Below are positions 1,804-64,000 of a DNA stretch of 64,000 bases, one piece after another. Under the pieces are notes generated by a model. The model saw nothing but the letters and a program-made list of their open reading frames with translations. It made no database searches and was not told the origin of the DNA. The stretch is from Schmidtea nova (Eukaryota). Made by a program: the position numbers and the translations under genes. The DNA lies in the NCBI GenBank assembly GCA_044892505.1, contig CM097884.1:86056001-86120000 (forward strand), read 5' to 3'. The first letter of the stretch is position 1. Every line of letters begins with the position of its first letter.

Positions 1804-1899
1804 TATTCGAATGATTAAGTTTTTAAATAGTTTAACTAAAAGTAAAACAATGAATTAAAACAAATATAAACAATATCGTTAAACAATTAATATTAGAAA

Positions 1900-2510
1900 A
1901 TTGAATTAAGAAATGATGCAGCTTATCAAATTGTTGGTCTAAATGGAAGTGGAAAATCATAATTTATTTGTAAATTATTACAATCTAAATTATTCAAATC
2001 AAAACTTAACAAATGATATTCTCATAAGGGAACTGATGATGAACATAGTATGAATCAAGATCAATTCTGTAAGATTAAAATGAAATTATAATAAAAAGAT
2101 TTGATAAAAATTGGTCGTATAGATTACGAAGTGATGATGTGATTATTATTGATGACTTGTATCAAGAAGCAAATAAAGAAAAGGACTTCAATAATTTATT
2201 TACAAAAATCGCTAGAAACAAAGGTTTTTCAGTTATTTTTATTACTCAGAATTTATTTCATCAGGGCTGCATTCATCGAACACGTAATTTGAATGTTCAA
2301 TATCTAGTTATTTTTAAATATCCTAGAGATGCCACAGTTTTCTTGCAAGACCTTAATAATCAAAATTTCTTGATCAATGTATTTCAAGATGCAACTAAAG
2401 TCCCACATGTCTATATCTTTCTTGATTTTACTCAAAAATGTAGTGATGAATTAGGTGTTAGAACTGAATTTTTTTACAAAGAAGGAGCAATGGTTAATAA
2501 ACAAAGTTAA
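1900..2510 (+). pseudogene. Polinton A32/FtsK-like packaging ATPase
   Basis: Walker A GLNGSGKS, Walker B IIIDDL, SVIFITQNLF and RTRNLNVQYLVIFKYPRD motifs; upstream half broken by stops (ORF track 2139-2510). Confidence 0.9.
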
Positions 2511-2719
2511 AATCGTGTTCCGAATTAATCATGAAACTTAAAGAAAGTGCCAAACATCTAAAGTTATTAAAACGAATCGTGAAACAATAATTCCGTCTAA
2601 AACTAGTTTCACACATCCGAAAAAATTGTTCACCGAAAACTTTCCAAATATTAATCTTATTTAACATAATTGAAAACCAATAACCGCTACGCCAAAAGCA
2701 TCTGCAAGTAAAAAAATCT

Positions 2720-3030
2720 AAAAATCATCGTAGTTTTCCGTTTTTAAATGCATTGCTAAAGGCTCCAAGCAAATGAAGAATGAGTATTTTACAATGGTTT
2801 CCCAATTATGTTATAGATGATTTACTCGACGTTATAGTTAAAGTTGTCAAAGGTAAAATTAATATTAGTAAATCAAATATAACGGTTTTGAACAAACACA
2901 AGAAACCATTACTTTCGCTCGTAAATACTAAAAATCTAAAACCAATGTGTATAATAATATATAAACAATACAGAGGGTTTATTGTAGCATTGTAATCATT
3001 AACATTATCTTTATTAGGGGGTGTAGGATT
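2720..3030 (+). pseudogene. Conserved small Polinton protein
   Basis: FPNYVIDDLLDVIVKVVKGKINISKSN..LNKHKKPL; homologues at ~5700-5780 (-), ~35050-35150 (-) and 52372-52572 (-); always next to Polinton genes where context is visible. Confidence 0.65.
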
Positions 3031-3149
3031 ACAAGGAAAACCCTCAACATCATAAACAATGGGTGAATTACCGATTGGTCATTTACCTAATCTTAAATTG
3101 TATTTTAATTCTGTTTGTGGGAATGTAGAAGATTTGGACAAACCATAAA

Positions 3150-3490
3150 GATCCCCCCCCAGTTTCGATGAAATTGAAAAGCTAAAGAAAAAAGTTCCAA
3201 ACTGTAAAAAAGAGACTCAGAAATGGTTATTTGGACAACTGTCATACAGTCTAAACCAACTGGCATTGAAACCATTTCCAGCAAAAGTATCTAGAACATA
3301 TGACATTATCGACTTGTGGCAATCGGATTTGATGGAAATGATTCCCTATTCAAAAATTAACAAGCGATATAAATATATTTTAACATGTATCAATGTTTTC
3401 AATATATTTGCTCGGGCTATTCCTACAATAGCTAAATCTGTAAATGAAATCGCCGTTGAAAAACTATTATCTAGTAGAGCATTTTCATAA
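3150..3490 (+). pseudogene. Polinton retroviral-type integrase, N-terminal part
   Basis: IDLWQSDLMEM..RYKYILTCINVFNIFARAIP (typical WQxDLxD..YILTxIDVFS). Confidence 0.85.
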
Positions 3491-4299
3491 AAATAAAACA
3501 TTAATAGAAAGACCGGAGCTTTTAGACTCAATATTTGATATATAACAGAGTCTCATGAGCATCTCGGAAGGGTCATAATCAAGATCGCAAATATTAAAAT
3601 TATTGGCTCTATTTATTTTGTGATAAACTTCATCATATTTCAAAATAGCCAGAATGCTATAAATAAAACACAAATCGTCGGAATTTATTACATTAACAGT
3701 AGAGTGCTTTTAAATTAAAGAATTAGGGGTATTAATGTGTCTTCGACCGCTTAAAGCCACAGCTTTTAGTCAAGACAAAATGGATTTCATTGAGTTTATT
3801 AATAACCTAATTATTCATCTTATCGTTTATTAAAGATATTTTCTTTCATTTAAAAGAGTAATGCTCTTATCTAAAGTTATGCCACTCACGAGTCTTGCAG
3901 AATTTGAAATATTGAATAATTAAAATTCACAATCTTTTTCAAATTATATGTCTATACAAAATTGTATTTTGACCATCCCCATTTCATTAATTACTTTGTA
4001 TAATTTATTTGTAAAAATTTCTGGTCAAATTAAAATTTCTAAATTAAGATCAGAAATAACCATTTTAACAATGGCGTTGTATAGCGTTAGGAAGAAAAGA
4101 ACCACCACATTGAACATCTATTAGGGAATTGTCGTCGGAAAAAAATGAATAAGTTATTGTAAGTAATGTATTCATCCGAAATGATAATTATTTCATTTAT
4201 TATAGTATAGTCAACTAAAGTATTAATTATATTATAAATGTGATGTGTTTTCGGTAGAGTTAAATATTTCAGATAATTTGCCTGAATATTTTAAAAAGA

Positions 4300-4523
4300 T
4301 TAATATCAATAATTCCCATAATGGTAAGACTATAGATCAAAATTTCTTTAAATAAGTACACAAAATTTTGACAGAGCCTTTATTAAGTGTGTATACACTT
4401 GATAAAGGCTGTGCCGAAATATTATGTACTTATTTAAAAAAATTGTAATCTATAGTCTTACTATTATAGGAATTATTGATATTAATATTAAAAAAGATCA
4501 AAGGTGAAACAAAAAGATAATTA
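4300..4523 (+). mobile_element. Hairpin-plus-tail element, copy 1
   Basis: ~100-bp inverted arms centred on CAGAGCCTTTATTAAGTGTGTA/TACACTTGATAAAGGCTGTG, plus an unpaired tail AAAGATCAAAGGTGAAACAAAAAGATAATTA; flanking duplication TGAATATTT(T)AAAAAGA. Confidence 0.8.
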
Positions 4524-4739
4524 TGAATATTTAAAAAGAGTTTGGAATTAAAATTAAAAATGAAAATAAATTTTTTTATAAAGCAGTTAAAAAAATAATT
4601 ATTCTTTTTAAATTTTAAATATTAAATCCTTTGGATAATAATTTTAGTTAGTTAAATAATGGTAATTAAAAAAATTAATTTTTTTTTCAATTTAAAAATA
4701 TAATTAAGTTTTATTCATTTTACATTTTTATTAGCTATA

Positions 4740-5330: not shown

Positions 5331-5914
5331 AAATTTGTTTATTCCAGCAAACCCATAGGAATCTTTTTCATTTTTTTCTTTTTGGAATTTATTTCCTTCT
5401 TTTCAGTTAATATTTCCTTCTTGTAGAATAATATTTCCTTCGTTATTACAACAAGATGCTAATATATTTAAGTCTAAATTATTTTTATCTGGTATTAAAT
5501 ATTCAGCACCATTTAATAATATAACGATGAAATTTCACTTATTGCTGATAACCTTATTTGAATTAGTGTACCTATAAACTCACTGTTTTGTTTATAGTTG
5601 ATAGTTGTAGTTTTACATAAGATTACGAATGTTTGTGTTGACTAGCTATACCAGAGAATTTTTTGTAGTAAGTCTTTCGGCTTTACTAATACTTAGATTG
5701 TCACGAATTACATTGTCAATAACTTCAAGCAAATCATCACAAACAAATGGAATAAAACCTGTCGAAAAGTCATAAGTTAATAATATATTTTTACCCTGTT
5801 TAATGTTTTAACTTTATTGTTGTTTTGACTATCGGTTTCAACAATAATCAAATTTACAGGTTGAATGATAACTTTCTTGAATGACATTTTTAATTAATTA
5901 ATTTTATGATTTTA

Positions 5915-6530
5915 ATTTAGTTTACAAAAAATACCATTCCTTATTCATTAAAATGATTAGTTCTAATACGTAAATCATCAGAACATTGTTGTGTGAAGTC
6001 TAAAAACAAATATACGTGTGGAACTTTTATTGAATCTTTGAGTGAATTTTAAGTAAAACTTTTCTATCATTAGGATAAATCTGTCTTGCAAGAAAATCAA
6101 TAAGTGTTGTATCTCTAGGGTTTTTGAATATAGCCAAGTATTGCACATTTAAATTCCATGTTCTATGACTTCCACTTTATTCAAATAAATATTGAGTAAT
6201 GAAAATAACTCTAACAACTAAAAGTCTATTAAATTTTGTTAATAAATTATTGAATTTTTTTCTTTATTGGATTCCTTAAACAAATCATTGCAAATTATTT
6301 CATTATCTTGCTGTAACCTAGATGACCAATTTTTATCAAAACCTTGATGGTCAATTTTAATTTAAAAAACTGATCTTGAGTCAATCGATGTTCTTCCTTA
6401 GCTCCCCTATGCCAATATTTTTTGAAATTCGATTTAAACATGTTGGATTGTAAAAATTTGCAAACAAATAAAGTTTTTACACTTCCACTAGGTCCCGCTA
6501 TTTGATAAACCACATCATTTTTAATTCCAT
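5915..6530 (-). pseudogene. Polinton packaging ATPase (remnant 2)
   Basis: YQIAGPSGSVKTLFVCKFLQS, collinear with 1900-2510; the downstream part carries the RNMEFKCAILGY/KNPRD-type region with frameshifts. Confidence 0.85.
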
Positions 6531-6582
6531 TTTTATTTAATTTATTTTTTATTATTGTTTATATTTGTTTAATTAATCAAAG

Positions 6583-7790: not shown

Positions 7791-9294
7791 CTTTGTTAGG
7801 GGTTCCATGAGAAATAATAATAAATGGTAAAGACAAATAAAAAAATTTGAACTTATGAATAAAATTATAAACACTAAGTGAAAGGAAAATAATTCTTGTT
7901 TATTGAAAATTAAAAATAAAAGATAAAGTTATCATATCATAATTATATCATAATATATCATAATTTTAGTACCGAATGGTTATCCTTTAGAATTTTATTA
8001 ATTCTTTATTTTATATATTTATTATATAATCATATATAAATTTAATAATACTGAAAATGAATTTTTAATAAATTCCATTGAAATCTTTATGATTATGCTT
8101 TTTTTAAACTTGCCCTTACCATGTAAAATGACAGAAATTAGCGTTTTAATTATATTACTATATATAAGAATACAAATTAATTAAAGATAATTTAAATTTT
8201 AAAAATAATTGAATTAATAATTTTTACATATTTCTGTTGTTGCTAAAATTAAACTGAAATAAAAGTTAAATAAGTTTAAAAAATATTTTTCAAATACTTT
8301 CATTTATAAGTAATATAAAGATTTGATTTATATTTATTTGATTGAATTTGATATTTTTATTTTGTATATATATATATAAATATATAGTTATTTTCAATTT
8401 TTATTACAAACTATGAATAGCATGTTTACGTCATTTATCAATACAAATAAAACGTCTTGATTGTTTAAAACGGTACTTTGTATCATATCGGGACTCAACT
8501 CAAATTTCTACAAAAGTCACTTTTTTTATATAACAATTTCCCCTTGAATCAATTTTCTACTAATTCGTTTCAAATAAATCTGATAATCTCTCTAAATCTT
8601 ATCTCATTTTTTCTTCTCTACTCGAGGCTAAAAGCCGAATTTTTGAAGTTCAGTCTCTTTTATATTCTTCCACTAATCATTTAAATAATAACACCCACCT
8701 AATGTTCTGATATTTTGCCTCTGTATATTCTTAAATAATCATCATAAATAATCAAAAATAAATTTTGAAATAGTCTAGGTTTGAATACACGTTAAGCTTT
8801 AGCTTTTTTAACTACCTTTAATCATTTTCCATGATAATGGCTATCCGAAATTCCTTTTCTTGATTTTCACATTTTTATTTTCATTTTTAATCGTTTCTTT
8901 TCTATTTCAAAAATTTTAATTTTTTTCTATTTTATTAAAAAAAAACTTTTCACAAGTATTTTTTTCAAGTGTGTATTTTTATTTGAGTGTACTTCAAAAC
9001 AGCTGTGACGAAAATTTGTGTAATTTAAAAAAAATTTGGTCTTTAGTTTTAAAAAAAAACATTTCCAAAGGTTTATTAACTGATTACTTAATTAGCAATG
9101 TTGAATTCCAATCATTTTTGGGTTCTTTGAACATTTGCTGATAAATTTGTATGTACTATATATTTCATCACTGCATACTTTATTAATTTTCTTAAGTTCA
9201 TTTTCCATTTCGGATAACTATCATATATTTATTCTCCGTAATTGAATATTTGTGCTTATCACAAATAATTAAACTTTTCCTCACTTTTTCTTTA

Positions 9295-10515: not shown

Positions 10516-10953
10516 TAAAAGTATAATTTTATATAATTCAGTTATTTAGTTAATCCTATTTATATTTTGATAATCTAAAATTTACAAAATATAAAAAAAA
10601 TTTTAACAATTATTTTTCAGAGCCTTTGAACAACTTTGAAAATGGCTTATTTCTGATTTTACTTTAATATAATAATAAATATCATGTAAATATAAATATG
10701 ACTATTGTATAAAATTTTATTAAAACAACATAATAATTATTGTTTAAATATAATATTGAAAATAATTCTGAATAATATACCTTTTAATGAATTTAAATTT
10801 TTTTATAAAAATATATTAATAATTGTATTTTAGTTTCACGTTTGATATCTTTTTATTTAATTCAATTTTTTTTGTAAGATACTAACAACCAAAAGATTTT
10901 GATTTATATTCTTACAAAAAATGAATGAAAATTTTTTAATTAAATATACTTAT

Positions 10954-21549: not shown

Positions 21550-22848
21550 CGTGGTGCGTTCAATAAGTACCCGACCAAAGGTAAAAAAATGTAATGACAA
21601 ATTTTAGTTTTTTTGTGTAAATAAATAAATAAATATAGGTTTTGATTTCAGTTATTGTTTTATTTTATCAAACGCATTAAAATTTTTATTGTGACATTTT
21701 GATTTTTCGTCGGTGTAATGATTTCAGACGTTGAGTATCGCAGCGTTATCAAGTTCTTTGTGTTGCAGAAGAAGACGTGCAGTGAAATCTACGATCTTTT
21801 GCAGTCAACTTACCTACATGACTCCCCATCTCTGACAATTGTTAAATATTGGGTCAGAGAGTTTAAAGGTGGTCGCACCTCTGTTTTTGATCAAGAAAAA
21901 TCAGGTCGGCCACAAGAAATCTTTGACACAGTTGATGAAAAATTGGAGAAGATTGTCCAAGAAGAGCGTCGAATCACCATGAAAATGCTGTCAACGAAGC
22001 TCAACATCAGTGTTGGTACAGCCCACGCCAAATTGAAATACATGGGTATCAGAAAACTGTGCTCCAGATTCGTACCCCGCTTCTTGACTGGTGAAATGAT
22101 GCGAAACCGCTTGGAGGGCAGTCAGAACAACTTGAACCTGTGGGACCAGCATGGTGAGACTTTCCTGGCAAATTTAATAACGGAGGATGAAACCCCACTC
22201 AGTATGTATTTGCCGGAAACAAAGCGTGAGTCAGCAGAGTGGAAACTGCCTGGAGAGAAGCCATTTTTGAAGATGCGAACGGAGACAAGTCATGGGCGAG
22301 CGATGATGCTTTCCATTTTCTGGGATCATAAAGGTGTTATTCTCATTGATTTCGCGGATAAAGGCATCACCATCAACGCTGCCTATTACAGCCAACTCGT
22401 GTCAACCGCCAGAAAGAATAGACGGAAGCAGAAGAATACGCCACTATGGTTTCTCCACGACAAAGCGCCAGTGCACACAGTGGGCGTTTCTCGGGCCACA
22501 ATTGAAGGTGCTGGATTAGTGCTTGTGGATCATCAGCCGTACAGCCCAGATTTGGCACCAAGCGATTTTTACCTCTTTAGACACCTAAAGAAGCATTTGA
22601 GAGGCACCCAGTTTGGATCCAAAGACGATTTGAAGGATGCCATGGAGGATTTCTTCAATGCATGTCCCCGAGATTTCTTCAAAAATGCGTTTTCTGAGTT
22701 GATTATTCGTTGGCGGAAGTGTGTGGAGCGAAATGGACATTATGTTGAAAAATGATGCCTACATACGTTAAGCTTGTTGTGTTATAAAAATGGCCCATTT
22801 TGGAATTCGTTTTCTTCGTCAGGTCGGGTACTTATTGAACACACTACG
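21550..22848 (+). mobile_element. Full-length mariner DNA transposon (1299 bp)
   Basis: 27-bp TIRs CGTGGTGCGTTCAATAAGTACCCGACC (2 mismatches) and TA TSDs. Confidence 0.97.
21718..22755 (+). CDS. Mariner transposase (DD34D), 345 aa, uninterrupted
   Basis: HTH N-terminus, FVPRFL (WVPHEL-like), TEDET, HDKA, HQPYSPDLAPSDF with 34 residues between the second and third catalytic Asp. Confidence 0.95.
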   Translation: MISDVEYRSVIKFFVLQKKTCSEIYDLLQSTYLHDSPSLTIVKYWVREFKGGRTSVFDQEKSGRPQEIFDTVDEKLEKIVQEERRITMKMLSTKLNISVGTAHAKLKYMGIRKLCSRFVPRFLTGEMMRNRLEGSQNNLNLWDQHGETFLANLITEDETPLSMYLPETKRESAEWKLPGEKPFLKMRTETSHGRAMMLSIFWDHKGVILIDFADKGITINAAYYSQLVSTARKNRRKQKNTPLWFLHDKAPVHTVGVSRATIEGAGLVLVDHQPYSPDLAPSDFYLFRHLKKHLRGTQFGSKDDLKDAMEDFFNACPRDFFKNAFSELIIRWRKCVERNGHYVEK

Positions 22849-22979: not shown

Positions 22980-24200
22980 TTTTATTATATAGACTTGATA
23001 AAAATTTGTTTTCCTCAAATAGGCTCTAGAAATTTCCCCACAGTCGTTTTCAAGTGTTTGTCAAAATTAGTCCATAAAGAATATTCATGTCAGTAAAGAT
23101 ATGAAAATTATCGTTAGAATCACATAGTCCTTTTACCTTTTCGTGACCAATTGAAGATTAAGTCCGTCAATCTTCTGTTGATAAGCAATATTTAACTGAT
23201 AGAAAAAGGCATTCAGAAAGGAAATTACTTAACATAAAGTCAAAAACACCAATTGCAAATGTCAAAAACGACTTGAACTATTCATGTGTTTACATTTTTA
23301 TCTAATAAAATGTTGTAGATTGAATTCTTATCTCGCCCAAACCTTCTTGTGATCTTCAATAAATTTAATCTACAATTCGTATTATCATATATTAATGAGA
23401 CTTTGAATATATGGAGCGGGATTTTCCTACATTTTAAAGAATAACATTTAATATTTTTGTGTTATGGTTGCAATTATTTTTTTATATGATCATCACCATT
23501 CATATACATTTTATAAGTGGCTTCATGGATACCAACATATTCCATACACATGAAAGACGAATGAAACATATTTTCAAACAAACATTTTAAATCTTTATAT
23601 AGTAATAATCTTTCCGCCAAGAAATTCATAAACCTAATTAAAGAAAATATAAAAGCAGCTGATTTAATTTCAAGTTCAAAATTAAGAGTGATATAGGTGA
23701 TTTTTTATTTAATATATCTTTCAGCAGTAGTTATTAAACTATATTCAATTTCTATCGTAGTTTTCATTACAAAATATGTTAAGTATGTTCCTGCTAAATT
23801 AAAATTTCAAATAGCATGAGGTTAAGTATATTCTATTTATATAGGATACGTCTGTGTTACGCCGTCTATGGAATCAATAACAACATTAATAGTTCTTCAT
23901 TAATATCACCATTATAATTTAAAATAGTTTTAATTATTGCCCTGTGTGTATACGTATTGTTTCCACCTTCAAATCTTGATATTATTACATTCAAGAATTG
24001 CATCCTTAAATAGGGTTTGAAACATGAAATATTTTGGTACAACATCTTCAGCAGCTCTTTTAATGTAAAATTTAACATCATTTCTATCATCTGTAATGAC
24101 ATCTATGGGAATACTACTCCAAACGCTCCAAATTCAAAAAAATGCTTAAGGAGATGGTAGCTCAAAAAGGCAGAATTCACATATACTTTCAATGAATTTT
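22980..24200 (-). pseudogene. Polinton major capsid protein remnant
   Basis: EFCLFELPS.., NNTYTHRAIIKTILNY (cf. NNxYPYRAYIETLLNY) and LENDCGEISRAY; heavily disrupted. Confidence 0.65.
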
Positions 24201-25902: not shown

Positions 25903-26319
25903 TAGGTTCATGGATGGACCAAAACAATCAACACGTAACTAGGATAGGGATATACGATCCATGAACATACATAAATGTTCGCAACTTCCACACGTGCGCC
26001 CTTAACTATTTCCTTATGTAGTTAAGTTGGTGATGCGCAAGGTGGTTGAAAAATGATGGGCAGGTGAACTCTACTGCTAGAACTACTCCCCATTTATTTT
26101 CGCGGGTTAACGCTGCCGTTAGAGGTCTTATGCTATCGTCCATAGTTTAATTTAATAAATTTCACGTGTAAAGATCCTCAATCGATTAATTCTACTAGCT
26201 TAACTACACTTTGCTAATTCTTTCCAGGTTTAATTTAATTCAGCTACGTTAAAGTTAACGAAAATCAATGTGAACAACAACATCAAAACTCCGATACACC
26301 TTCACGAATACTTTATTAT

Positions 26320-26911
26320 TTACAAAAACTCCTTAAAGGTTCCTTCCATAGGAAAAACGTCTGCTAATAAATCGATGTCGTTCAGATTCATCAGGTGATC
26401 GATTTGCGCCTGTAGTTGCTGTGCAAACAACTTCTTTCGCCGCCTACGTTTCGATTGCATCCTCTTTCTCTTCCTTACTCCACCTGTGGAGCTTATTACT
26501 TTTGGAGGTTCTGCTGGACTTGACGCTATCGTGAAACTTAGGCCTTCTACATCAGTTCCAACTGAACAAGTCGTTTTCTTTCCGTCACCCAGTTATAATA
26601 TGTTATAGGTCGAATTTGAGACTGCAACTCTTTTTCGATAAAAGGAGTTGTCACTGAGTGGAGGCACTTTCTCAGTTCAATTTTGGTGGCCTCCCACTCT
26701 ACTTTATAATCATCCGCTGTCCGCTGTGCCCGTTCGGTCCGGGTTATCTGTTCTTTCATCCGGGCTGGCACAAACCAGCTCTTCCTTAAATACTGTATTT
26801 GGGCTTTGGCCTTTGCCAGTTTAGCCTTTAATTGTTCTAGCTCCATCCTTGAGCCCGTCTAATCCTCCACATTTTATCGAGTTCTTTTTGTTGGCTTGTT
26901 TCCTGGTTCAT
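26320..26911 (-). pseudogene. LTR-encoded coiled-coil/basic/acidic protein, copy B
   Basis: MNQETSQQKELDKMWRI/ MELEQLKAKL..SWFVP..EATKIELRKCL..IRPITY/ ..RKRKRMQSKRRRRKK..DIDLLADVF; two 1-nt frameshifts relative to copies C and D. Confidence 0.75.
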
Positions 26912-27003
26912 ACTGAAGGTACTTTAATTAATGGTTATTTATAGAAGTTTTTATTTGGTATTAATGAACATTCTATTTTATGGAATGGAAGAAATTAGAT
27001 TAA

Positions 27004-27573
27004 TCAATAAACTAAAACCAAAATTCGAAATGAAAATTTATTAGATGCTATGAGACACAAATAATTCGTTCGATTATTATACTTGCCGAAGAAATAAGCT
27101 ACATGGAGCCCTTGATGTATGGGTGTACGGTGTATATTGTCCAGTGAGAACTCCGGTTGACTGATCTCGTATTCCTTTCCGAAGGGCCGGGGTGAGGTGA
27201 AAAGTTGAAATCCCAATCTTGCAAGCTCCCCTTGCGGGATATGCCCCCAGTAAATGACTTTTGATGGTTTTTGATCGGGACCATTTATTAAAATTAGGAG
27301 TCGCCCGAATTTCGGCGAATAAAATTGCTCAGAATCCGGCAATCCCGGGCATCCTTGATACATTACTTGGTCCCGCCCAGTGTCCCATATAGTAAATAAA
27401 CATCTTTCACCGAACTCTCTTCTCCATTTGAACATTTGGACGTTGATTGTGCGCAGGATCGAGTGCGGCAAGGCCTTTAGTCCCATCTGAGATATCATGG
27501 TGGTCGCAGCAACGACAGGATCCGACGACCTTCTATGTGCGCATATAAATTGTTCTATTGTAGTTGATTCCAT
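27004..27573 (-). CDS. Orphan 189-aa ORF inside LTR copy B
   Basis: Uninterrupted, GC-richer than its flanks, sense to the LTR promoter; no recognisable domain. Confidence 0.55.
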   Translation of the reverse strand: MESTTIEQFICAHRRSSDPVVAATTMISQMGLKALPHSILRTINVQMFKWRREFGERCLFTIWDTGRDQVMYQGCPGLPDSEQFYSPKFGRLLILINGPDQKPSKVIYWGHIPQGELARLGFQLFTSPRPFGKEYEISQPEFSLDNIHRTPIHQGLHVAYFFGKYNNRTNYLCLIASNKFSFRILVLVY

Positions 27574-29440: not shown

Positions 29441-32054
29441 TGATGAGCTGTAGCCGGTTTGCACCGGTTCTATAGAACCGGTTGTTAAATATTTTGTAGT
29501 TTATAGAACCTTTGTTAATTAGGAATCAACAAATTAATTTTGTTGATACCTAATTAATAGTTGATACTATATTTAAAAACAACAAATAAATTTAAAATTT
29601 AAATATTTTCACTGCAAAGTTGGCGTTGAGATTTCTTTCACTAAAAAAGTTATTATGTGTGTATTAGCAAACATTATTTTCTTTTTTTTATTAAAGTTTA
29701 GAAGTGATAATTTTGTGCTGCTTAAAAAACTATTTTTTACAAAAAATAAAATAAATTTTAACAGAAAAACAAGAATCCATTTATCTTATTTATAAACAAT
29801 TATTAATATATTGTGAGTATATTTATATTTTCTACTTTATATCCTAAATAAGCCCATTCTTTTAGGAAATAAAATTTAATGAAACGCAAAACTAATATTC
29901 GTGATTATTTTAATAATAATAAAAAAACAATGAAGAAGAAGAGGAAAATATTTCAAATACTGTAACTCTAAGCGTAAGCCAGGAATCAGCAACAGTATCT
30001 TGCTCTAAAATTTTACCAGCCAATATCTAAAAAGAGAATAATTTTCCAGATTGCTGGAATGGTGACAAATTAAAGATATTTCAAGCTCAATATAATGGCT
30101 TGGAGGTCAAAAATAAAAAGCTTGGATGTCTAAAATGCTCCTCGTTCGATAATTTGGGTATTTGTAAAGAACAAAACATTCACATTCCACAACAATGGCA
30201 AAATTTTGAAATTCAACCATCGGGAACAACAAAAGTTATTCAACAGGCTTCATTAAGAAAATAAATGTCTGAACATTTTAAATCAAAAACACATTTAATG
30301 GTTTTAAAAATGCTTGAACAAAAAGAAAAAAATGAACTACCCAGAATCATCTATTCAAATAATGCCAAAAATATGGCTAGTACTAATAAAATATTCAATA
30401 TTAATTACAGCTTAATAAAAAGAAATAGACCGCTTTCAGATTTGGAAGCAGAAGTTGAACTTCAGGTTAAAAATGGGGTAGATCTTGGAATTTCGCTTCA
30501 TTCTAGGTTTAGTGCAATTAGAATAGCAGAACACATAGCAAAACAAATGAAAAAATAATTGTTGAAAAAATAATTGCATCCAATTCAAAAATTTGCGTAA
30601 TCATAGATGAAGCCTCAATTATATCAAGCAAATCGGTGCTAGTCATTTTTTTGAAGTTTGAAATGGAAAAAGAAAATTCAATATTTTTTTTGGACTTAGT
30701 TCATTTAGAATCTCAAACCGCTGAGCATATTTTTAATATTCTAATGCAAACACTAAACTCAAATGGCTTTTCCACGGATTTTTTGAAAGAAAATCTTATT
30801 GGTTTTTGTTCTGATGGTGCAAGTACAATGCTTGGTCAAAAGTCAGGTGTTGTTACAAGGTTAATAAAAGAATTTCCTTATGTAATAGTTTGGCATTGCT
30901 TAAACATCGTCTTCAGCTGGTTTTGGATGACGCAATAGACGAAATAAAGCAAGTAAATCATTTTAAATCATTTATCAATAAAATTTATGTAATTTTTCTT
31001 CAATCAAATAAAAATCAATTGCGCTTACAAAATATATCGCGAGATTTGGAAGTGGAAATAATTAAAATAGGCGAGTCTTAGGCCCAAGATGGGCAGCATG
31101 CAGCTTAAGATCTGATATGGCTGTTTGACGGGCTTATGTACCACTTTTCAAATTTCTTAAGGATGATTCCAAATATCTTGGTATGGCAAACCGACTTGCG
31201 AATAAATATTTTATAAAGGATTTAGCACTTATGATCGATATTCTTCATGAGATGTCCTATTTGTCAATAGGATTACAAGCTAGGTTTGTTACCCTTCAAA
31301 AGGCAACGAAACTGATAAAAAGAACTATAAATATTATGATAAATTTGAAAGAAAATTTAGGAACATTTGAAAAAAAAGTTGAAGAAATGTTGTCGTCACC
31401 TGCATTTGCAGATATTCTTTTTGTGGAAAATAAAAAATTTGAAAGTCTCCCAAGAAAAAAACTTATTGAAACAATAATTGATAAAATGAATTCCCGAATG
31501 TTAAATTGTAGACATATGTTGTGGCTTTGGATGGGTTAAAACCAAAGATAGATAAACGCTCTAGGGATGCCTCCATCCAAGCCTAAACATAAAATGCTTT
31601 CACGACACACGAGCACCCTCGACTATTTCCCTGGATAATCGAGCTGGAAATGTGCAAGGTGTTTGAACAATGATGGGCAGGTGAGCTCTATTTCTAAAAC
31701 TACTCCCTATTTATGTTCACGGGTCCATTGCTGCCGATAGAAGGACTTACGCTTTACTTTCTTTTTAATTTATCCGAATTCATTGTCTTTCATTTTAGTT
31801 TTCTGCCCCCTTCTTTACAATATCAACAGATGATTTGAATAATTATATATATATATCTTTACTTTAATGTTCCTATTGTTTATCCTTTATCGAATTGTGT
31901 TAGCATCTTTGCCAATTATAATTTGTATTTGATATTTTAATTTAAAATTTTAATAACTACTTTATTTCAACAATAAAATAAGCACAAAACTAAAATATAA
32001 TAAAACTAAAATTTTATACACAACAGTAATATTAATAAATTATTTTCGACCATT

Positions 32055-32668
32055 TCATTCGAAATATTTGAGGAAATCATCGTCAACTGCCGCAAAATCT
32101 GTGGTTAAGTCTATTTCCGGAAATTCATCATTATGTTGAATCATTTGTTCCACAAATTGTTTTTTCCATCTGCGTTGCCTTGCACCCATCTTGTTTTTCT
32201 TTTTCTTTTTGATCTCGATGGTTGATACACTTTTCGATGCGGCTTGATTTTCCATTGCGCGAACCTGCGATGGTTCTTCTGTATTAGTACCTTTTGTGCA
32301 TTCAGCCTTCTCTTCTGACCAATGTTGATAAGTGATTGGTCGTATTAGTTGCTTCAATTACTGTTGATAAATGAGGTGGTGACTGCCTTGAGGCATTTTC
32401 TCAACTAAATCTTGGTTGCCTCGAGTTCCATTCTGAATTCATCATTCGATCGCTGAGAACGTTGGTTTTTCAGGAGTTGAGTTTTCATTTGGTCGGGGTT
32501 GAACCAACTGGTTCGGAATTGCGATATTGTAGCTTCTGCTGTTTTCAATTTTTCCTTTGTTCGGCCGATTTCCTTTTCCAGGCTGCGAATAATTCGCCAA
32601 GCCTTGTCTAATTCATTTTGTAGGTTCATTGAATTTCCTGTCATTTTCTGAAAATCAATGAGTGTCAT
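32055..32668 (-). pseudogene. LTR-encoded coiled-coil/basic/acidic protein, copy C
   Basis: ORFs 32405-32668 and 32055-32357 join through one stop (GAG>TAG) and one frameshift when aligned to copies B and D. Confidence 0.8.
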
Positions 32669-33758
32669 TAGTTAAAATTTCAGCTAGTTTGAATTATATT
32701 AACCGATTCTGTTTTATACTTTCCTCGGAAGGATTCGTTGAGTTTTCTTTTATTTTAAACTAAGGAGTGAAATAAATACATTCTATAATGTCAACACTGT
32801 CGCTATGTACAGCGATCAGATAAGTTTGGTTACAATATTTAATTACCCGTACCTGTGCTATCTACAGCAATCAGGTTGATAATTTACGAAAATGTTAAAG
32901 AAAAATAAGTTCTTCTGCCCTATGTACAGGGATCAGGATAACAAATTAACGTTTATTATTGTTTGGTCTGGAATAAGAATTAGATCAATTCTAATCGATT
33001 GTTTTTTGTTTGTGTGGTAGTTCAGCTACCCACCTGAATTCTTGCATTATGGTTATCGACCCTGAGTTATAAAATTTCATTCTAAATTTATATTCTAAAT
33101 GGTATTCAAAAATTTGAACGATGATGCTGGCCACTTCATACAACAAACCCTAGATGCACGATCTCGCAAAGAAACACGGTATTACTCTGAATACTTCCCT
33201 GATGAATGTTAAGTTTAAATGTTAATTTATCATCATAAAAAAATACTGAATGATAAAATTGAAATAAAGCTGGCTGTACTGCTCAGCGATAAATAAAAAT
33301 CCTACCCTCTTCGTGGCACTTAATACCAGGCAGTCCGCCTAACTGCAAGAAGTAGTTAAATCTACTCGGCACACTCTGCCTCCTTCCACCGATTTCACGA
33401 TGGACAGGAGCGCCCTTGTTTCATAAATATAAAATAATTCATTTCGCCTCCTTCCACCGATTACACAGTGGACAGGAGCGCAAGTGACTCATAAATAATA
33501 ATTAAAAAATCAATTCAATAAATTTGCCTCCTTCCATCGATTACACAGTGGAAGGAGCGCGCTTCTCATAAAAATAAATAACAAAAATTATCATAAATAT
33601 TTAATTCAAGACAGAAATTATGATAGAAAAATTATAAACATATGAAATCACAACATAAATCATACATACCTAGTAGCTGTTGATCAAAATTTTGCGAAAA
33701 TCAAAAATTTCTAGTGACAAAAATCATATACCATTAAATTTGTCTGAATCTGAATCAG

Positions 33759-33792
33759 TATTTATACTGATCAGATTAGCTCATCAACCAAT
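33759..33792 (-). promoter_or_regulatory. LTR promoter: TATAAATA with upstream CCAAT box
   Basis: TATTTATA on + at 33759-33766, 46545-46552, 28970-28977 and 11711-11718; CCAATCAG about 25 bp further out in B and C. Confidence 0.7.
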
Positions 33793-34768
33793 CAGCGTGA
33801 AGCTGATGATCAAAATATATAATTCTATTAAAAATAATCAATTTAATTTTTTGTTTGAATTAACTGTAATTTTATTAATTTTATTATTATGTAATTTTAA
33901 CTCTTTTTCTTAATTACTTATTTATTTAAATTGTTAACCATTTTATTACATTTAAATCTCATTTTCTTATTACTTTTTACATCCTAATTTTGTTTTTTAT
34001 AACTTTTATAATATCATTTATTTCTTTTCTATTTCTTTTAATTCTTTTTAATGGAATTTCTTTCCAATACATAAATTTTCCTAATTCTTATTTATTTTCT
34101 TATTATTATTACTTATATATTTAAATGTTAGTCAAATGGTGGACCCAACACATATAAGAATGACAAAAAATGAAAAAAATAACGACATTGCCGAATTATT
34201 TAATTTACTTGAAGCTGATTGGAATTTGGAAGAAATTACTTGTCCGTGGATTTTGGGAGAAGAAAAATTGAAATGAAATAATTAGATAAGAAATTCCCAT
34301 TAATGATTTCAGAGATTATGTTCAAAATGTAATTGAAGGAAAAACCTCTGAAATAGAAACAATTCAAAAAGCTAAAAATAAAATTAACACCATTGCTATA
34401 AGTTCATCAGAGGCCGAACGAGGATTCTCAATAATGAATATTATTTGTGAAAAAAAAGAGCTTATCTTTCAGTAGAACATATTCCTAGTTTAATGAGTAT
34501 TAATATGATTGGACCACCACTTGAATCATGGAATTCTGGAGAATATGTCAAAACTTGGTTGAGGAATCATAATTCAGCTGATGATACCAGGATTCGAAAT
34601 GCGCCAAAAAATATTAATGAAAATAATAAAATCAATTGGAAATTATTATAATAATTTAAAAAAAAAATAAAAAAAATCTATTTAAATAAAATGATATTTT
34701 ATTAAAATAAAACGATTTTTAGTTTTTGGTTTTATAGAACCGGTTGTAAAATGTTTGGCAGCTCATCA

Positions 34769-38250: not shown

Positions 38251-38326
38251 TTTAAATTAATATGACTTCATATTTTATTATTATTATTCTTTAATTATAA
38301 TACAAAGATAAATGATAATAGTAATA

Positions 38327-38568
38327 TTAATATCAATAATTCCCATAATAGTAACACTATAAATCGAGATTTCTTTAAACAAGTACACACGATTTCGGCA
38401 CAGCCTTTATCAAGTGTGTAATACTTTATCAACTAATACACACTTGATAAAGGCTGTGCCAAAATATTATGTACGTGTTTAAAGAAATTTTGATCTATAG
38501 TCTTACCATTATGGGAATTATTGATATTACTAATAATAAAAGGTCAAAGGTGAAACAAAAAGATAATT
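38327..38568 (+). mobile_element. Hairpin-plus-tail element, copy 2
   Basis: Same arms and tail as copy 1; 16-nt loop; flanking duplication ATGATAATA(G/A)TAATA. Confidence 0.8.
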
Positions 38569-39159
38569 ATGATAATAATAATAGTTATGAAGTTTTCTAA
38601 ATCATTCATCAATATATCAAAAAAGAAACTATCTTTAAATTTAAATATTTATTTACTAAAAAACAATTATTCAAACAACAACTTATTTAAAAAATGTATA
38701 TAATATTTACCCAACATTATCTGTTTATTTATTTATCTGTGATTCCGGAACGCTCAAAGTTTACTACGATTACTTTTTTTTTATTCAATGTTTTCCACAT
38801 TTTTTCTTTTTGGGGATTTTTTGAAGAGAATTTATGACCATATTGATCTTGGATATACAGGATCAAGATCAAGAAACGCATAAAATGTCAAAATCAAGAT
38901 TGAAGATGGACATTTGTTAGGAGACGATCGTGTATTCACACGAAACATTGTGTACAACGAAATTCTTTAGGCCAATCATAATAAGTTTAATAAAATTCTA
39001 AGTTAAAAGTTAACAACTTTAAAAAAACATTTATTTTTTTCAATTGTTTACTACTAAAAAATGAAACTGCCAAAAGTGAAAAATTGACTAAGGGGGCGCC
39101 TTGGCGCTTTAGAACAACCTAGTCTATAAATAAACATTAAGACTTTTTAAATCTTACAT

Positions 39160-47789: not shown

Positions 47790-49290
47790 AGACGGTATCC
47801 CAATAAACTTGCTTTTGTTAGAAAATAAAAAAAAACATATCATTACTTCGCAATAACAGACAAATAATTTTTTAAATTGTAAAAATGATTGAATCTCTCC
47901 TCTCATAATTTTGAGTTAATGGTGTCTCAGATGTTTAAATGGCTTTAGGAATGACGACACTTTCGATTGTCATATAAATCTCTCTAAAACAATTCAGTTA
48001 GGTATAACAATGTACACCATTCCTACAAATAAATATCTTAAATTTGCTGACTGGAAGAAGGCTGTCACTCCTCTCTTTGTTATTTACACCAATTTCGAGG
48101 CAATTTTACCTAGAGATACTATGCATTTTCAAAATCACTTGCCTATTTCTGCTGGTTTGCTGCTTATTAATAATTTTACCGGTGTAAAGATTTAAAAATC
48201 TTTCATAGAACTAGATAGTGTTGATCAATTTCATAACGAAATTGAATTAATTAGTAAATATTTCGTGGATCCCTTTTATTAGAAAAACTATCAAAAGAAA
48301 ATGATTTTTTCTGATGCAGATAAAATTGTTTTTGATAATAGCACAAGATGTTACTTGTCTAAAAACCTGTTAATTAATCCTGTTTGCAATCATGACCATT
48401 TAACGGTCAATTTCTTGGAGCTGCTTGTTCTTCTTGTAATCGATCAAGACAAATTAAACATACCATTCCTGTCACCTTTTATAATTTCAAGGGTTATGAT
48501 CTACATCACATTTTAAAATTCGGATATCCAAAATATCATTCATGGAATATAAGCTGTATTCCCTTGACTAGTGAAAAGTTTCTCAGCCTTTTTGCTTATA
48601 TAGATTCTTTAATTGTAAAATTCATAGACTCTTATCATTTTGTCAGAGTCTTTAAATAATGCTGTCTGACTTCATTGCCTCTGATAGAATCTGAATTTAG
48701 GGCACAATCATTACTGCCAAGGGTATCTTTCCTTATGACACAGCGACTTCTTTAAAAGTTTTAAAAAAGACATTTTCTTTACTTCTTATCTGGAAAGACG
48801 CGAAGACAGCGTATACCAGTGCGTATACCTCAGGGCTTTATAAAGATATCAACAATTTATATGGCTGGGCTTTGAACCAGAGATTGCCTTGTGAAAATTT
48901 TGAATGGGTCACAGATGAAGCTTTAAGTCAGATTTTAATTGAATGCACTAAGGTAGATTTGGATGTACTTCATTATGGTTATACTATATGATGTAGATCT
49001 AGAAATACCGGCTTTGATTCACGACAAGCTAAACAATTTTCCAGTTACCGCAAAAAAAGATCTACATTCCAGGCTCGAAAGTGAAGAAGCTGTTGCTTAA
49101 GCACACGCCCAAGAAAAAATATGTTCATCATTGGAGGCTTCTCGCAACATTTATTAAATTAGATGTAAAAATTATCAAAATACATAGAGCAATCAAATTC
49201 ACAGAATAAATATTTGAAAACTCTGTTAACACTAATACGACGTTAAGAGCAGCATCTGGAAATAAATTGGATAAACATTATTGACATTAA
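47790..49290 (+). pseudogene. Protein-primed DNA polymerase B (Polinton)
   Basis: CLRCLNGF, VIYTNFEAIL (ExoI), HDHLT..GAACSSCN, FYNFKGYDLHHI (ExoII), KFIDSY, KGIFPYD, YKDINNLYGWA (Pol motif A), IHRAIKF; internal deletions. Confidence 0.9.
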
Positions 49291-49685
49291 TATTAAAAAA
49301 AAGATTAAAGGTGAANNNNNNNNNNNNNNNNNNNNNNNNNNNNNNNNNNNNNNNNNNNNNNNNNNNNNNNNNNNNNNNNNNNNNNNNNNNNNNNNNNNNN
49401 NNNNNNNNNNNNNNNNNNNNNNNNNNNNNNNNNNNNNNNNNNNNNNNNNNNNNNNNNNNNNNNNNNNNNNNNNNNNNNNNNNNNNNNNNNNNNNNNNNNN
49501 NNNNNNNNNNNNNNNNNNNNNNNNNNNNNNNNNNNNNNNNNNNNNNNNNNNNNNNNNNNNNNNNNNNNNNNNNNNNNNTATTCAAGTGATGTTTTATCCA
49601 GTGTACCAGGTATAGTATATAACAAAAATCTTTCGACTTTGTTTTATACTTACCTGGCGCGGAGAGAAATTTTCGCGTCTCCTGC

Positions 49686-49727
49686 ATAGCACTGATGAGA
49701 GCCATAAGCTCGAAACTAGTCTGCTAT
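49686..49727 (+). ncRNA. Type I hammerhead ribozyme (minimal stem III)
   Basis: ATAGCA-CTGATGA-GAGC-CATAA-GCTC-GAAA-CTAG-TC-TGCTAT: intact core, stem I (6 bp plus extension TCTCC/GGGGA), stem II 4 bp; predicted cleavage after C49721. Confidence 0.88.
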
Positions 49728-49997
49728 TGGGGATTTGCACTGGTTATCACAAAAAATCACAAGCTTTTTTTGTTTAAAACAAATAAGNNNNNNNNNNNNN
49801 NNNNNNNNNNNNNNNNNNNNNNNNNNNNNNNNNNNNNNNNNNNNNNNNNNNNNNNNNNNNNNNNNNNNNNNNNNNNNNNNNNNNNNNNNNNNNNNNNNNN
49901 NNNNNNNNNNNNNNNNNNNNNNNNNNNNNNNNNNNNNNNNNNNNNNNNNNNNNNNNNNNNNNNNNNNNNNNNNNNNNNNNNNNNNNNNNNNNNNNNN

Positions 49998-50428
49998 GAT
50001 GCACGGGCATTGCAATGTCTTTGTTTAAATAGGGGTAGGATTTTTTTCCAAACACACACATACATCATCGAGGTTATGACTATCATACTCATCTATCAAT
50101 TACCTTTAGTTTGGTATGTATATTATTAGGTTTTAAAATTTTGAACCTTAGACCTACGAACCTACTATTAAAAGTCCTTTTGAATGACATATAACTGGTA
50201 ATGTTTAAAATATTTTTAAGTTTATAGACATCTTGAAGGTCTTTGACTAACCACAAACCTTTGAGGACATGACCATCATACTCACCACTCAAATACCTTT
50301 CAAATGATATATAACATGTAAGGTTTAAATGATTGTAAGGTTTTTAACTCTTTGAAGGTCGTGCATCCATCATAGACCTTCGAATGTATGACCATCATAA
50401 TTACCCTTCAATTACCTTTTGATTAATA

Positions 50429-50461
<33 letters not shown>

Positions 50462-50570
50462 TGTAAGGTTTAAAAAAATTTAAAGGTCCAGGACCCTCCA
50501 TAAACCATCGAGAGTATGACCGTTGTATAGACCTCTCAAAGACCTTGTGTGAAGGTTTGACTTTATTTGA
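49998..50570 (-). repeat. Right arm of the long imperfect inverted repeat
   Basis: See 42585-43260. Confidence 0.65.
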
Positions 50571-51181
50571 CCTTTTAAAATTCAAATTTGATATTTGAAT
50601 TTGAAATGATTCATCGATAACATCGTCAATAAGTCATACCGGTGAGTCATAATCTTTTTTACCCCCTCACTCCGGGGTAGGGGTGACTCATGTTGTTTGT
50701 TAAGAGCCATAATGTCTTTGTTTTTGGCTTCACACAATTACCTACTCGAGTCCTATATACCGACTGTTATTTATTTAATTAAAACCAAACACAAGTTCCG
50801 GTGAGCCAGACTTGATCAAAGTCAGTAAAAGGAAACTGAAATTTTAAAATTGTATTGAATTCGAATGCAGTTTGTTAGGCGCAAGTTCAACTGCCAAGTT
50901 AGATATTTCTTTTCGTTTTTATGAAAGTTTTATGACGGATTCGGTTTCAGCATATCGAATTTTATATAAATTGAAATTTTGATTGAAAACTTATAAGTAT
51001 TAGTAAAGAAAATAATTTAAAATTTTATATGTGGGAAGCACAGGTATAACGGAATCGGATTCAGTATATCGAATTTAATATTATTTCTTAAAAACACATG
51101 TTCGTTTTTAATTACATAATGAAATATATCCAAATGTTAATTCATTACCCTTCTCTCACTAATTTAATTTAAGTATAAATA

Positions 51182-52306: not shown

Positions 52307-52371
52307 TATATAATCAACAGCCGTAAATCAAGTGTTTAGGTTAAAAAAACTCTTTGTTGCTTATATACTAT

Positions 52372-52640
52372 TTAAAACATTTGACTTCGATTTTTACTAT
52401 TTAATAGTGATCGCAGTGGCTTTTTGTGTTTGTTCAAAACAATTTTATTTGATTCACTTATGTTCATTTTACCTTTGACTATTTTACGTATAACATCAAG
52501 TAAATCATCAATGACATGATTGAGAAATGATTCTAAAATAATCATTCTTTTTGCACTAAGAGCTTTAAACAATGCATTAAAATATTGGAAACTATGATGC
52601 CTTGAAGTTTCTATTACTGTTCGATTTTTCTTCCGAGTTG
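52372..52640 (-). pseudogene. Polinton small conserved protein fragment
   Basis: NHVIDDLLDVIRKIVKGKMNISESNKIVLNKHKKPL, homologous to 2780-2995. Confidence 0.75.
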
Positions 52641-55600: not shown

Positions 55601-56442
55601 AAATTTTAAAATTAGTTTTAAATTAGCACTACCCCAACATGTCTTTCTCTTTTAAACAAAATTCGTCCTCGTATATGGCGAGGTTGATCTTCTGAATATT
55701 CTGGATTTAAAAATGTGTTGATAATTATTGTATACCACTTAGAGATTTTTTTTCATTTTTTTAATATGTAAAATAAATATATTGTTTTATTATAAATTTG
55801 CATATCGCCCACAGGCAGTGACCAAATATTACTAAACGAATATTTTCTATCAAACAAATATTTGTTTCCCTTACTGTAATGCATTATTTTCTTGTCATTT
55901 TTTACATTAAAATAAATAATTTTACACCAAGAAAAAATAAATCTCAACCAATAATAAACGCAAAAGATTGTATCATATATTGAAAATTCTGCAAAATTGA
56001 AGCCTTCTCACAATAAATATTTTGATCTCATTTAATACAATTTCTTCTTGAAATTCTGAGAATTATGATTTCCATTTAATTTTCGATATAGAAATTACAT
56101 TTAAATTAAATTAAGTTTCAAATTTTTTCAGTTCTCCAAAGCATCCAATAATTGTCATTCCAAGTTCATTTTCTGATACTCACAATTATTCTTAGACTTT
56201 TACCTTGTGGAGTTAAGGAATTAGCATCATATCTCTTTTAGAAAGAGATAAATTTAATTAAATTGTATTTGTCGTCATAACAATAGCTTCATAAAGCAGA
56301 AAATCATTGAGACAGATAAATTTTCAATGTTTTAAGATCTGAACTTTCTAAAATAAATTGAGCCTATTTGTTCGGTTACAAATTTTGAGTCCTCGTGCTG
56401 CTATAATTACAAATCATCAAAACCCAACACAATAAATTTTAT

Positions 56443-56655
56443 CATAATTATCTTTTTTCACCTTTGATCTTTTTTTATTATTATTATCAATAATTCTCAT
56501 AATGACTATAGATCAAAATTTTTTTTTTATAAACAATAACACAATATTTCGGCACAGCCTTTACACTTGATAAAGGCTGTGCCGAAATATTGTGTTATTG
56601 TTTATAAAAAAAAAATTTTGATCTATAGCCATTATGAGAATTATTGATAATAATA
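56443..56655 (-). mobile_element. Hairpin-plus-tail element, copy 3
   Basis: Opposite orientation; perfect 14-bp TSD ACAATAAATTTTAT (56429-56442 and 56656-56669). Confidence 0.85.
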
Positions 56656-57545
56656 ACAATAAATTTTATTGAATTCCAAAATTAAAAAACGATAAATCAA
56701 TACAATTTCTATTTTCTACAAAAGACTCAACTCTCTTTTTTATTCCAGCGATAGGGGTAGGTCTATTAAGGGTAGATTGCTCTTTCTGATACGCTTTTGG
56801 TTTGCTAATGTCAGTTTTCTGACAATCACACTCTTTCCACTTACCAAATGCATAGTACTCCCGACAAATAATTTTTACTTCTGCCAAACTGGCGATTTAC
56901 TGTCGTTTTGCTATTTCTTTTATAATAATTTATTTCGTTAACATATCAATTAAATTTCAGAATGGGGACATAATATAATTATCCTTTTTTTATAATCGGA
57001 TTTTCATGGAAATCAGATGATTGCAGTTTCTTATAATTTAATAATTTCAAGCTGTGACTCAGATAATTTGATTTTGTTCGGATTTTACATTCGTTTGGCT
57101 TTCCAGGATAATAGAATTTTCTACTAAACTAATAAATTATTCATTAATTTTTAATTAATTTTTTATTTATTGAATATATTTTTTAGGGACATTTTATTTT
57201 TTAGGATATTTTAATATCATATTCATACTCGTATCCCCATTTGCCGTTCGTACATGACAATTTCCTCCACGATATGTCAAATTTTAACTNNNNNNNNNNN
57301 NNNNNNNNNNNNNNNNNNNNNNNNNNNNNNNNNNNNNNNNNNNNNNNNNNNNNNNNNNNNNNNNNNNNNNNNNNNNNNNNNNNNNNNNNNNNNNNNNNNN
57401 NNNNNNNNNNNNNNNNNNNNNNNNNNNNNNNNNNNNNNNNNNNNNNNNNNNNNNNNNNNNNNNNNNNNNNNNNNNNNNNNNNNNNNNNNNNNNNNNNNNN
57501 NNNNNNNNNNNNNNNNNNNNNNNNNNNNNNNNNNNNNNNNNNNNN

Positions 57546-57731
57546 CATAATGGATGACTATAGATCAAATATTTTTAAATAAGTACACGATATTTCGGCA
57601 CAGCCTTTATCAAATACACACTTGATAAAGGCTGTGCCGAAATATCGTGTACTTATTTATAAAGATTTTGATCTATAGTCATCCATTATGAAAATTATTG
57701 ATATTAATAATAAAAAAAGATCAAAGGTGAA
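57546..57731 (+). mobile_element. Hairpin-plus-tail element, copy 4 (gap on both sides)
   Basis: Same arms and start of the tail (AAAGATCAAAGGTGAA). Confidence 0.8.
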
Positions 57732-63627: not shown

Positions 63628-64000
63628 ATATAATTAAATCTCTAAATAAATAAACTTTTTTGAGTTCATGATTTCATTTATTTTTTCAGATTATAGATCA
63701 ATATTTTTCGACACTTTAAACTGCCCCCAGAATAAAAGAGAACAAATGAAATCGTGAATAAAAAGTCAAAGATGAAGATAAAAGATTATTATGAAACGTT
63801 TTAATATCTTTAAATAATATGTAAATGCAAACTAGGTTTTGGGATAGATCTAGTTTAGACAGAGATGTGACTAGTGTGAGTGCTAAACGAGTTCTTAAAA
63901 CAGCGATGCCCAAACATATTTTAACTCGGGTCAAAATCTCAAGATTCAACTGGCCAAATTTGTTTTCGCAATCAAATATATAAAAATAAATACAAATAAT

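Follow-up and report, generated by a model that had tools for sequence, protein, structure and literature searches.

Palindromic repeats with a predicted minimal hammerhead in Schmidtea nova: probable pLTR-only insertions of a Penelope-like retroelement

Copies of the element and their surroundings

The window analysed here, a stretch of 64,000 nucleotides from Schmidtea nova (assembly GCA_044892505.1, contig CM097884.1, forward-strand positions 86,056,001 to 86,120,000), has a GC content of 28%, contains six assembly gaps and is crowded with transposon remains, including a mariner ORF, a Tc1-like piece and LTR integrase pieces. It harbors four copies of a short palindromic element, the number given in a preliminary description of the sequence and recovered by blastn of positions 4300-4523 against the window, with matches starting at 38327, spanning 56443-56655 (reversed) and starting at 57546; every copy matches the query in both orientations (Table 1). 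The same description placed a tail piece at 49277-49315, and a 39-nt blastn match is found there, its left edge being a true end of homology and its right edge lying at a gap. Copy 4 is flanked by gaps on both sides, so that its ends and duplication are not visible, and it runs into N at the very base at which the 49277 piece does, which points to assembly failure within the repeat.

Each copy comprises two arms in inverted orientation and a tail on one side only. The inverted arms had been described as ~100 bp long and are indeed present, with a size of about 90-95 bp; the tail, described as ~45 nt, measures 36-41 nt, and its terminal motif ends at 4525 rather than 4523 in copy 1, the last 2-6 bases being common to tail and duplication. 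The fold of copy 3 is a single ~90-bp hairpin that leaves 33 nt of tail unpaired (z = -27, none of 200 shuffles being as stable), and the folding energy of the single arm-plus-tail unit is ordinary (z 0.1). The fold-back centre, reported as shared, does occur at the same place in all copies; its sequence differs in each of the four. The centres disclose (i) a tail arm clipped by 2 nt in copy 1, (ii) both arms whole plus a 16-nt filler with a short templated repeat in copy 2, (iii) a tail arm clipped by ~8 nt in copy 3, and (iv) an inverted arm clipped by 8 nt in copy 4, with 2-nt microhomology and an 8-nt loop.

Target duplications of 14-16 bp, claimed for three copies, are present in all three with both ends visible and measure 14-17 nt; the measurements refer to these three window copies. 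A repeat of at least 14 nt with at most one mismatch in comparable flanks was encountered at 1 of 1500 random window positions, and an exact one at 0 of 1500. The three duplications sit in AT-rich DNA, and the overlap of the last tail bases with the duplication is expected if a target 3' end primes synthesis. The exact duplication and the most similar pair of arms occur in the same copy.

Table 1. Coordinates of the palindromic elements, their parts and related pieces in the window
Feature	Position	Strand	Remarks
Copy 1 left target duplication	4283..4299	+	17 nt; differs by one T from 4524-4539
Copy 1 inverted arm	4300..4394	-	Up to full unit start; hammerhead core decayed
Copy 1 tail-side arm	4395..4485	+	~2 nt clipped at centre; hammerhead core from 4399 intact, helix I mismatched
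Copy 1 tail	4486..4525	+	40 nt
Copy 1 right target duplication	4524..4539	+	16 nt; first 2 nt common to tail end
Old decayed palindrome centre	8961..9051	-	Same or related family; 67% over 100 nt
Decayed tail piece	10819..10872	-	76-82%
Copy 2 left target duplication	38312..38326	+	15 nt; 1 mismatch to partner, low complexity
Copy 2 inverted arm	38327..38420	-	Predicted minimal hammerhead, core at 38413 on minus strand
Copy 2 centre	38421..38436	.	16-nt filler, including 8-nt copy of nearby arm sequence
Copy 2 tail-side arm	38435..38530	+	Predicted hammerhead with private G12A change
Copy 2 ATG-started frame	38511..38576	+	~20 codons over arm end and tail; candidate ORF start of parent PLE
Copy 2 tail	38531..38571	+	41 nt
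Copy 2 right target duplication	38569..38583	+	First 3-6 nt common to tail end
Tail-only piece	49277..49315	+	Last ~14 nt of arm plus tail, interrupted by gap
Copy 3 target duplication, tail side	56429..56442	+	14/14 exact
Copy 3 tail	56443..56478	-	36 nt; 3-nt in-frame deletion
Copy 3 tail-side arm	56479..56563	-	Without helix I 5' strand and first core box
Copy 3 inverted arm	56563..56655	+	Complete predicted minimal hammerhead, core at 56567
Copy 3 second target duplication	56656..56669	+	14 nt, exact
Copy 4 inverted arm	57546..57613	-	Clipped at core, without its own helix I 5' strand; outer end in gap
Copy 4 tail-side arm	57612..57707	+	Complete predicted minimal hammerhead
Copy 4 tail-side hammerhead	57618-57621 / 57647-57650 (helix I)	+	Core 57622; predicted cut after 57646
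Copy 4 tail	57708..57731	+	Interrupted by gap
Decayed tail piece	63757..63794	+	84% over 38 nt

Other residents of the window include an uninterrupted 350-codon mariner transposase frame (21703-22752; Pfam Transposase_1, HTH_48), possibly recent, and a repeat present two to three times at ~70-80% identity (25957-27573, 31528-34150, 44178-46925) with short related frames, two of which were scanned and gave no Pfam match. A 375-nt self-inverted stretch (37421-37795, 80%) lies beside frames at 36118-37479, which presumably resemble a Mutator-type transposase and gave no Pfam match. Decayed gene pieces, some repeated in inverted orientation, are located at 1850-3487, 5908-6577, 47920-48988 and 52350-52618; they are equally devoid of Pfam matches, and we take them to resemble ATPase, integrase and polymerase genes of Polinton/Maverick type.

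The family in sequencing contigs and the predicted hammerhead of its arms

Contigs of four runs, all from one study, were placed on copy 2 at 80% likeness, yielding 17994, 9435, 7646 and 6332 matching contigs. Summed depth over arms and tail reaches 2-4 million in X1, compared with 20-141 in the flank at far left, while individual contigs among those listed have 40-60; together with the window density of one copy per 12-15 kb, the contig depth suggests an order of magnitude of tens of thousands of copies, the summed depth itself being no copy number. Steps in depth at 38315-38329 and 38570-38584 mark fixed outer ends, and the bin at the centre shows a tenfold lower depth with many substitutions and deletions, the pieces that span it carrying 5-12 gaps. 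Loose ends cluster before 38435 (232, 138, 121 and 97 contigs; agreement 0.42-0.44) and again behind 38527-38529, so that the family-wide arm ends correspond to 38435 and 38527-38529 in copy 2 coordinates; subfamilies, including that of copy 4 type, show up as further loose ends at 38474 and 38502. Five of the 32 listed pieces span exactly 38435-38529 within longer contigs and are most simply solo arms without a tail. A joint from 38574 to 38436, with a depth of 1081 in X1, is a head-to-tail join; this single tail-to-start joint in the X1 contigs is the extent of direct (partial tandem) arrangement, the window containing no tandem array. Solo arms and the head-to-tail join indicate a unit of one arm, to which a tail may or may not be attached. 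No common continuation past the tail emerges from the contigs, where loose ends agree at ~0.5 and rare masters would be hidden.

A further reading takes the element for a MITE or foldback DNA transposon, and the length of its inverted arms, its very high copy number and the many DNA transposons nearby would suit this; nevertheless, in all three complete copies one arm lies 36-41 nt inside the element end, so the termini are not inverted repeats, and the duplications vary from copy to copy (14, 15 and 16-17 nt) instead of being fixed and short. Solo arms, tail-only pieces, the head-to-tail join and a predicted hammerhead near the centre likewise oppose this reading, which is largely refuted and which we consider extremely improbable. 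The earlier claim of target-primed insertion rather than a MITE is supported by the 14-17 nt duplications and the one-sided tail.

The start of the arm displays a minimal type I hammerhead motif, overlooked in the preliminary description, comprising (i) a 4-bp helix I, (ii) U3 and A8 replacing C3 and G8, with one extra A, (iii) a 3-bp helix II opening with G-C, (iv) a GAAA box, (v) a palindromic 4-nt helix III, and (vi) U or C at position 17. A descriptor composed after the motif had been seen matches four of the eight arms and one unrelated site, with 0 sites in 30 block-shuffled windows; as all arms belong to one family, these matches count as one observation. The core boxes are intact in 5/8 arms, and the motif is the minimum-energy fold in three of the four arms tried (z from -0.5 to -2.4), a weak fold. 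Among the differences listed for the contigs, it varies only at the two private changes of copy 2 and in the U/C alternation at position 17 (38468). The canonical type I architecture, with a 6-bp helix I and a 4-bp helix II, differs from that of the arms (4 bp, 3 bp and a U3-A8 core). Rfam reports no hammerhead in the arms, even at E 10, and no match in the window at gathering score; at E 10 over 49579-57731, the arms give generic hairpin matches only, all below threshold and including microRNA hairpins.

According to the accessible portions of PMC4209133, minimal hammerheads (min-HHRs) of Penelope-like elements (PLEs) have traits including U3-A8, a base between positions 9 and 10.1, a G10.1-C11.1 pair, a 4-bp helix I and a palindromic 15.2-16.2, and in Schistosoma mansoni they also occur as opposite-strand pairs 100-700 bp apart. 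The arm motif carries each of these five structural traits, and the arms are thus predicted from sequence to carry a PLE-type minimal hammerhead. A scan with the arm pattern gave 0 loci in viral contigs and three in metagenome contigs (L001:5001-5027, L002:183-209 and L003:5001-5027), which were rejected given their 46-58% GC and a match of only ~28 nt, without helix I and the remaining arm; presumably they resemble bacterial cyclic-di-GMP riboswitch hairpins.

Two further motifs of the window deserve mention. The hammerhead at 49686-49727 combines a canonical C3-G8 core with helices I and II of 6 and 4 bp, respectively, and scores 24 bits with Rfam Hammerhead_1, below the cut-off of 34. The preliminary description implied a tie between this motif, located after the gap, and the partial copy at 49277; this tie is not supported, as the motif has a different core, shares no homology with the arms and sits 3' of the tail, a place taken in complete copies by the target duplication. 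The surrounding stretch (49646-49727, with gaps on both sides) comprises a GC-rich hairpin before the hammerhead, a palindromic helix III in the hammerhead itself and a T run after it. A 12-nt stretch ~30 nt before the motif, on the far side of the hairpin, presumably resembles the 5' end of U1 snRNA; Rfam gives no U1 match, and the whole is possibly an snRNA-headed hammerhead retroposon. On the minus strand, 23032-23057 holds a short hammerhead-like motif, a weak match that has the U3-A8 core and another helix II and may derive from a PLE family akin to this one.

Proposed assignment to a Penelope-like retroelement

PLE insertions have been described as an inverted pLTR head to head with a pLTR, followed by a one-sided tail of 30-40 nt and bounded by a target duplication (PMC8557442, PMC3846280, in the portions available). 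The window element follows the same order: inverted pLTR, pLTR and a 36-41 nt tail. The possible PLE mobilisation proposed earlier gains support from this published layout and from the predicted minimal hammerhead in the arms, and we judge that the copies are probably pLTR-only insertions of a Penelope-like retroelement. None of the 17 window ORFs scanned contains RT or GIY-YIG, and no tRNA was found, so the element has no tRNA head. The ATG-started frame over arm end and tail is open in copies 2, 3 and 4, despite the 3-nt deletion, interrupted in copy 1 and frameshifted in the 49277 piece; with a chance of 0.07 of being open, it is a hint only that the parent PLE ORF may start here. Copy 2 alone keeps a longer frame open from helix II onward, copies 1, 3 and 4 being interrupted. 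When the 42-codon frame of copy 2 was compared with proteins, a weak test, the search returned one candidate and none at E 10.

Elements of the RTE type give long target duplications, and long variable duplications with 3' microhomology suit any target-primed insertion. If a hammerhead RNA resembling a SINE or a retrozyme were mobilised by a non-PLE LINE, for example of RTE type, its insertions could show these marks as well as the head-to-tail join; in addition, animal retrozymes have type I hammerheads and longer target duplications (PMC7229834, in the part available). Such an origin is nonetheless very unlikely, in that the arm hammerhead is the minimal PLE variant and not the canonical retrozyme type, the unit ends are not at the cut site, and the 3' end has neither poly(A) nor a simple repeat, while a one-sided tail outside the inverted repeat is described as particular to PLEs (PMC8557442, PMC11167929, as far as accessible). 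CELE45, considered as a palindromic RTE-linked analogue, was set aside, since PMC8457455 calls it only a putative SINE in the available text.

Formation of the palindrome

The proposed template is a single-arm RNA of ~140 nt, either the 5' end of the mRNA of an autonomous PLE or a separate non-autonomous unit. Its 5' end would be fixed ~10 nt ahead of the minimal hammerhead; reverse transcription would start either at the arm end, ~80 nt further on, or at the tail end, ~40 nt beyond. A PLE RT/GIY-YIG protein would nick the two strands of an AT-rich target at sites separated by 14-17 nt, one target 3' end priming at the tail site and the other at the arm-end site. Both cDNAs would extend to the same RNA 5' end and be joined head to head, whether through a short microhomology or through filler; hence either arm may end up clipped, and gap filling would produce the target duplication. 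As the inserts retain ~30 nt upstream of the predicted cut, the template RNA would be used uncut. The palindrome itself is probably an insertion product and a dead end, because transcription through it would yield a hammerhead base-paired to the antisense copy in the same RNA. 

Biochemical work on PAc, the Poseidon element of Anolis carolinensis, offers a precedent: in the portions available of PMC11167929, its protein cuts and extends both strands, two internal start sites on the RNA bound the tail, and AT-rich DNA and uncut RNA are used, the former preferentially. The extension of both strands and the two start sites are the grounds on which priming at both nicks is inferred here. In the present family the tail end lies 117-120 nt from helix II; the main PAc site lies 111-118 nt from the ORF start at helix II (same source). 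The whole mechanism, with two-nick priming, two internal starts and head-to-head joining of cDNAs, is our favored account and seems more probable than its competitors taken together. It explains why the inverted arm has a fixed outer end, why either arm can be clipped and why solo arms occur.

The arms were compared over the 72 columns common to all of them. Within-copy differences amount to 1 in copy 3 and 4 in copy 4, compared with 6-15 between copies, and in each of these two copies the arms pair with one another (support 0.88 and 0.89). Seven variant events join both arms of one copy, and one joins like arms of different copies. Copies 1 and 2 each have 10 differences between their two arms, which show no grouping by copy; they are thus uninformative in this respect. 

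Variants common to both arms within copies 3 and 4 also suit a second route with the same PLE origin, in which the tail-primed cDNA would fold at its 3' end, copy back on itself and jump to the other target end. Self-priming of this kind was proposed for inverted PLE junctions in PMC3846280 (accessible part), and copy 4, with its 8-nt loop, 2-nt microhomology and clipped inverted arm, fits this route. In copies 1 and 3, however, the inverted arm keeps more of the unit 5' end than the tail arm, which would need a later deletion, and the fixed stop of the inverted arm, which is also the solo-arm end, is left unexplained. Fold-back self-priming is therefore regarded as unlikely, if less so than the remaining routes.

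A third route supposes a palindromic non-autonomous master retroposed whole by a PLE, with later deletions varying the centres and conversion evening the arms. Constant outer ends are compatible with it, as are the palindromic centres common in the contigs (pieces across the centre, with 5-12 gaps), and subfamily masters could hold, on both arms, the subfamily variants that the loose ends at 38474 and 38502 indicate. Against this stand several observations: the centres of copies 1 and 2 differ although both copies belong to the same sequence type; the centre of copy 2 is a gain, not a loss; arm-specific variants are nearly absent; and solo arms and the head-to-tail join show a unit of one arm. 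The 10 differences between the two arms within each of copies 1 and 2 imply that conversion is not strong and does not keep the arms alike. Compared with two-nick priming and fold-back, palindromic-master copying fits worst among the palindrome routes, and we consider it improbable, somewhat more so than fold-back. The palindrome as replicating unit, as the preliminary description implied, is likewise at odds with centres that differ per copy, arms that group by copy, solo arms and the head-to-tail join. Central deletion after insertion, combined with arm-to-arm conversion, could be an alternative source of variable centres and matching arms, and four copies are insufficient to decide how the palindrome forms.

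More tentatively, and as a possibility short of an even chance, internal priming at the 5'-proximal pLTR of a PLE's own mRNA might yield tens of thousands of ORF-less mini-insertions, the head-to-head form representing twin priming at both nicks. If true, the family would document PLE integration naturally and on the scale of a genome, and the divergence between the two arms would serve to date each insertion. Of the steps by which a PLE insertion is completed and its inverted 5' repeat forms, the in vitro work in PMC11167929 established the two start sites and showed that both strands are extended; its accessible text covers neither the later steps nor the origin of inverted junctions. Many tiny complete insertions, each with two arms, a junction and a target duplication, would make twin priming, fold-back and palindrome copying separable by counting in one assembly. 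Such elements are liable to be filed as MITEs or microRNA hairpins and may be a large source of double-stranded RNA.

Comparison with known systems

The layout, the hammerhead variant and non-autonomous pLTR derivatives are already published, as the portions available of the sources cited below attest. In the literature searched, with Repbase, most subscription papers and supplements lying outside the search, we found no account of a high-copy pLTR-only palindromic family or of PLE twin priming, and no statement of twin priming as a route to the inverted pLTR.

EN+ PLE insertions, such as Pen2a_Av and others (PMC3846280, PMC8557442; accessible portions), share the head-to-head inverted pLTR, the one-end tail of 30-40 nt, the target duplication and the palindromic junction. 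Furthermore, the ORF of Pen2a_Av begins within pLTR plus tail (12 and 22 aa), compared with ~7 and 20 candidate codons in the window family; in rotifer Pen2a, pLTR and tail together contain the first 22 codons. On the other hand, these insertions carry an ORF body and a second direct pLTR between the repeats, both absent here; the duplications are 8-10 nt in the rotifer PLE examples versus 14-17 nt here; the arms are 181-218 nt long versus ~95 nt; and the EN+ PLE examples are single copies, whereas the present family has a very high copy number.

Metazoan PLE min-HHRs (PMC4209133, part available) resemble the arm motif in the U3-A8 core, the extra base before helix II, G10.1-C11.1, the 4-bp helix I, the palindromic helix III and their location mostly away from full PLEs. 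Their helix II has 6-8 bp compared with 3 bp here, and the paired motifs of Schistosoma mansoni are 100-700 bp apart, compared with 9-31 nt at the fold-back.

PAc (PMC11167929, part available) is comparable in the two internal starts bounding the tail, the extension of both strands, the AT-rich target, the dispensability of hammerhead cleavage and a similar distance from helix II to the insertion end; it differs in being an autonomous element with a protein, whereas the window family is known from DNA repeats alone.

Finally, non-LTR retrozymes and further non-autonomous derivatives of PLEs, including MRC1 (PMC7229834, bioRxiv 10.64898/2026.07.22.740005, PMC8557442; accessible portions) likewise comprise a short non-coding pLTR-derived hammerhead unit, occurring as monomers and head-to-tail repeats. 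Tandem arrays, mostly with canonical hammerheads, define the retrozymes, whereas dispersed head-to-head pairs with a tail are prominent in the present family, with a unit of ~140 nt.
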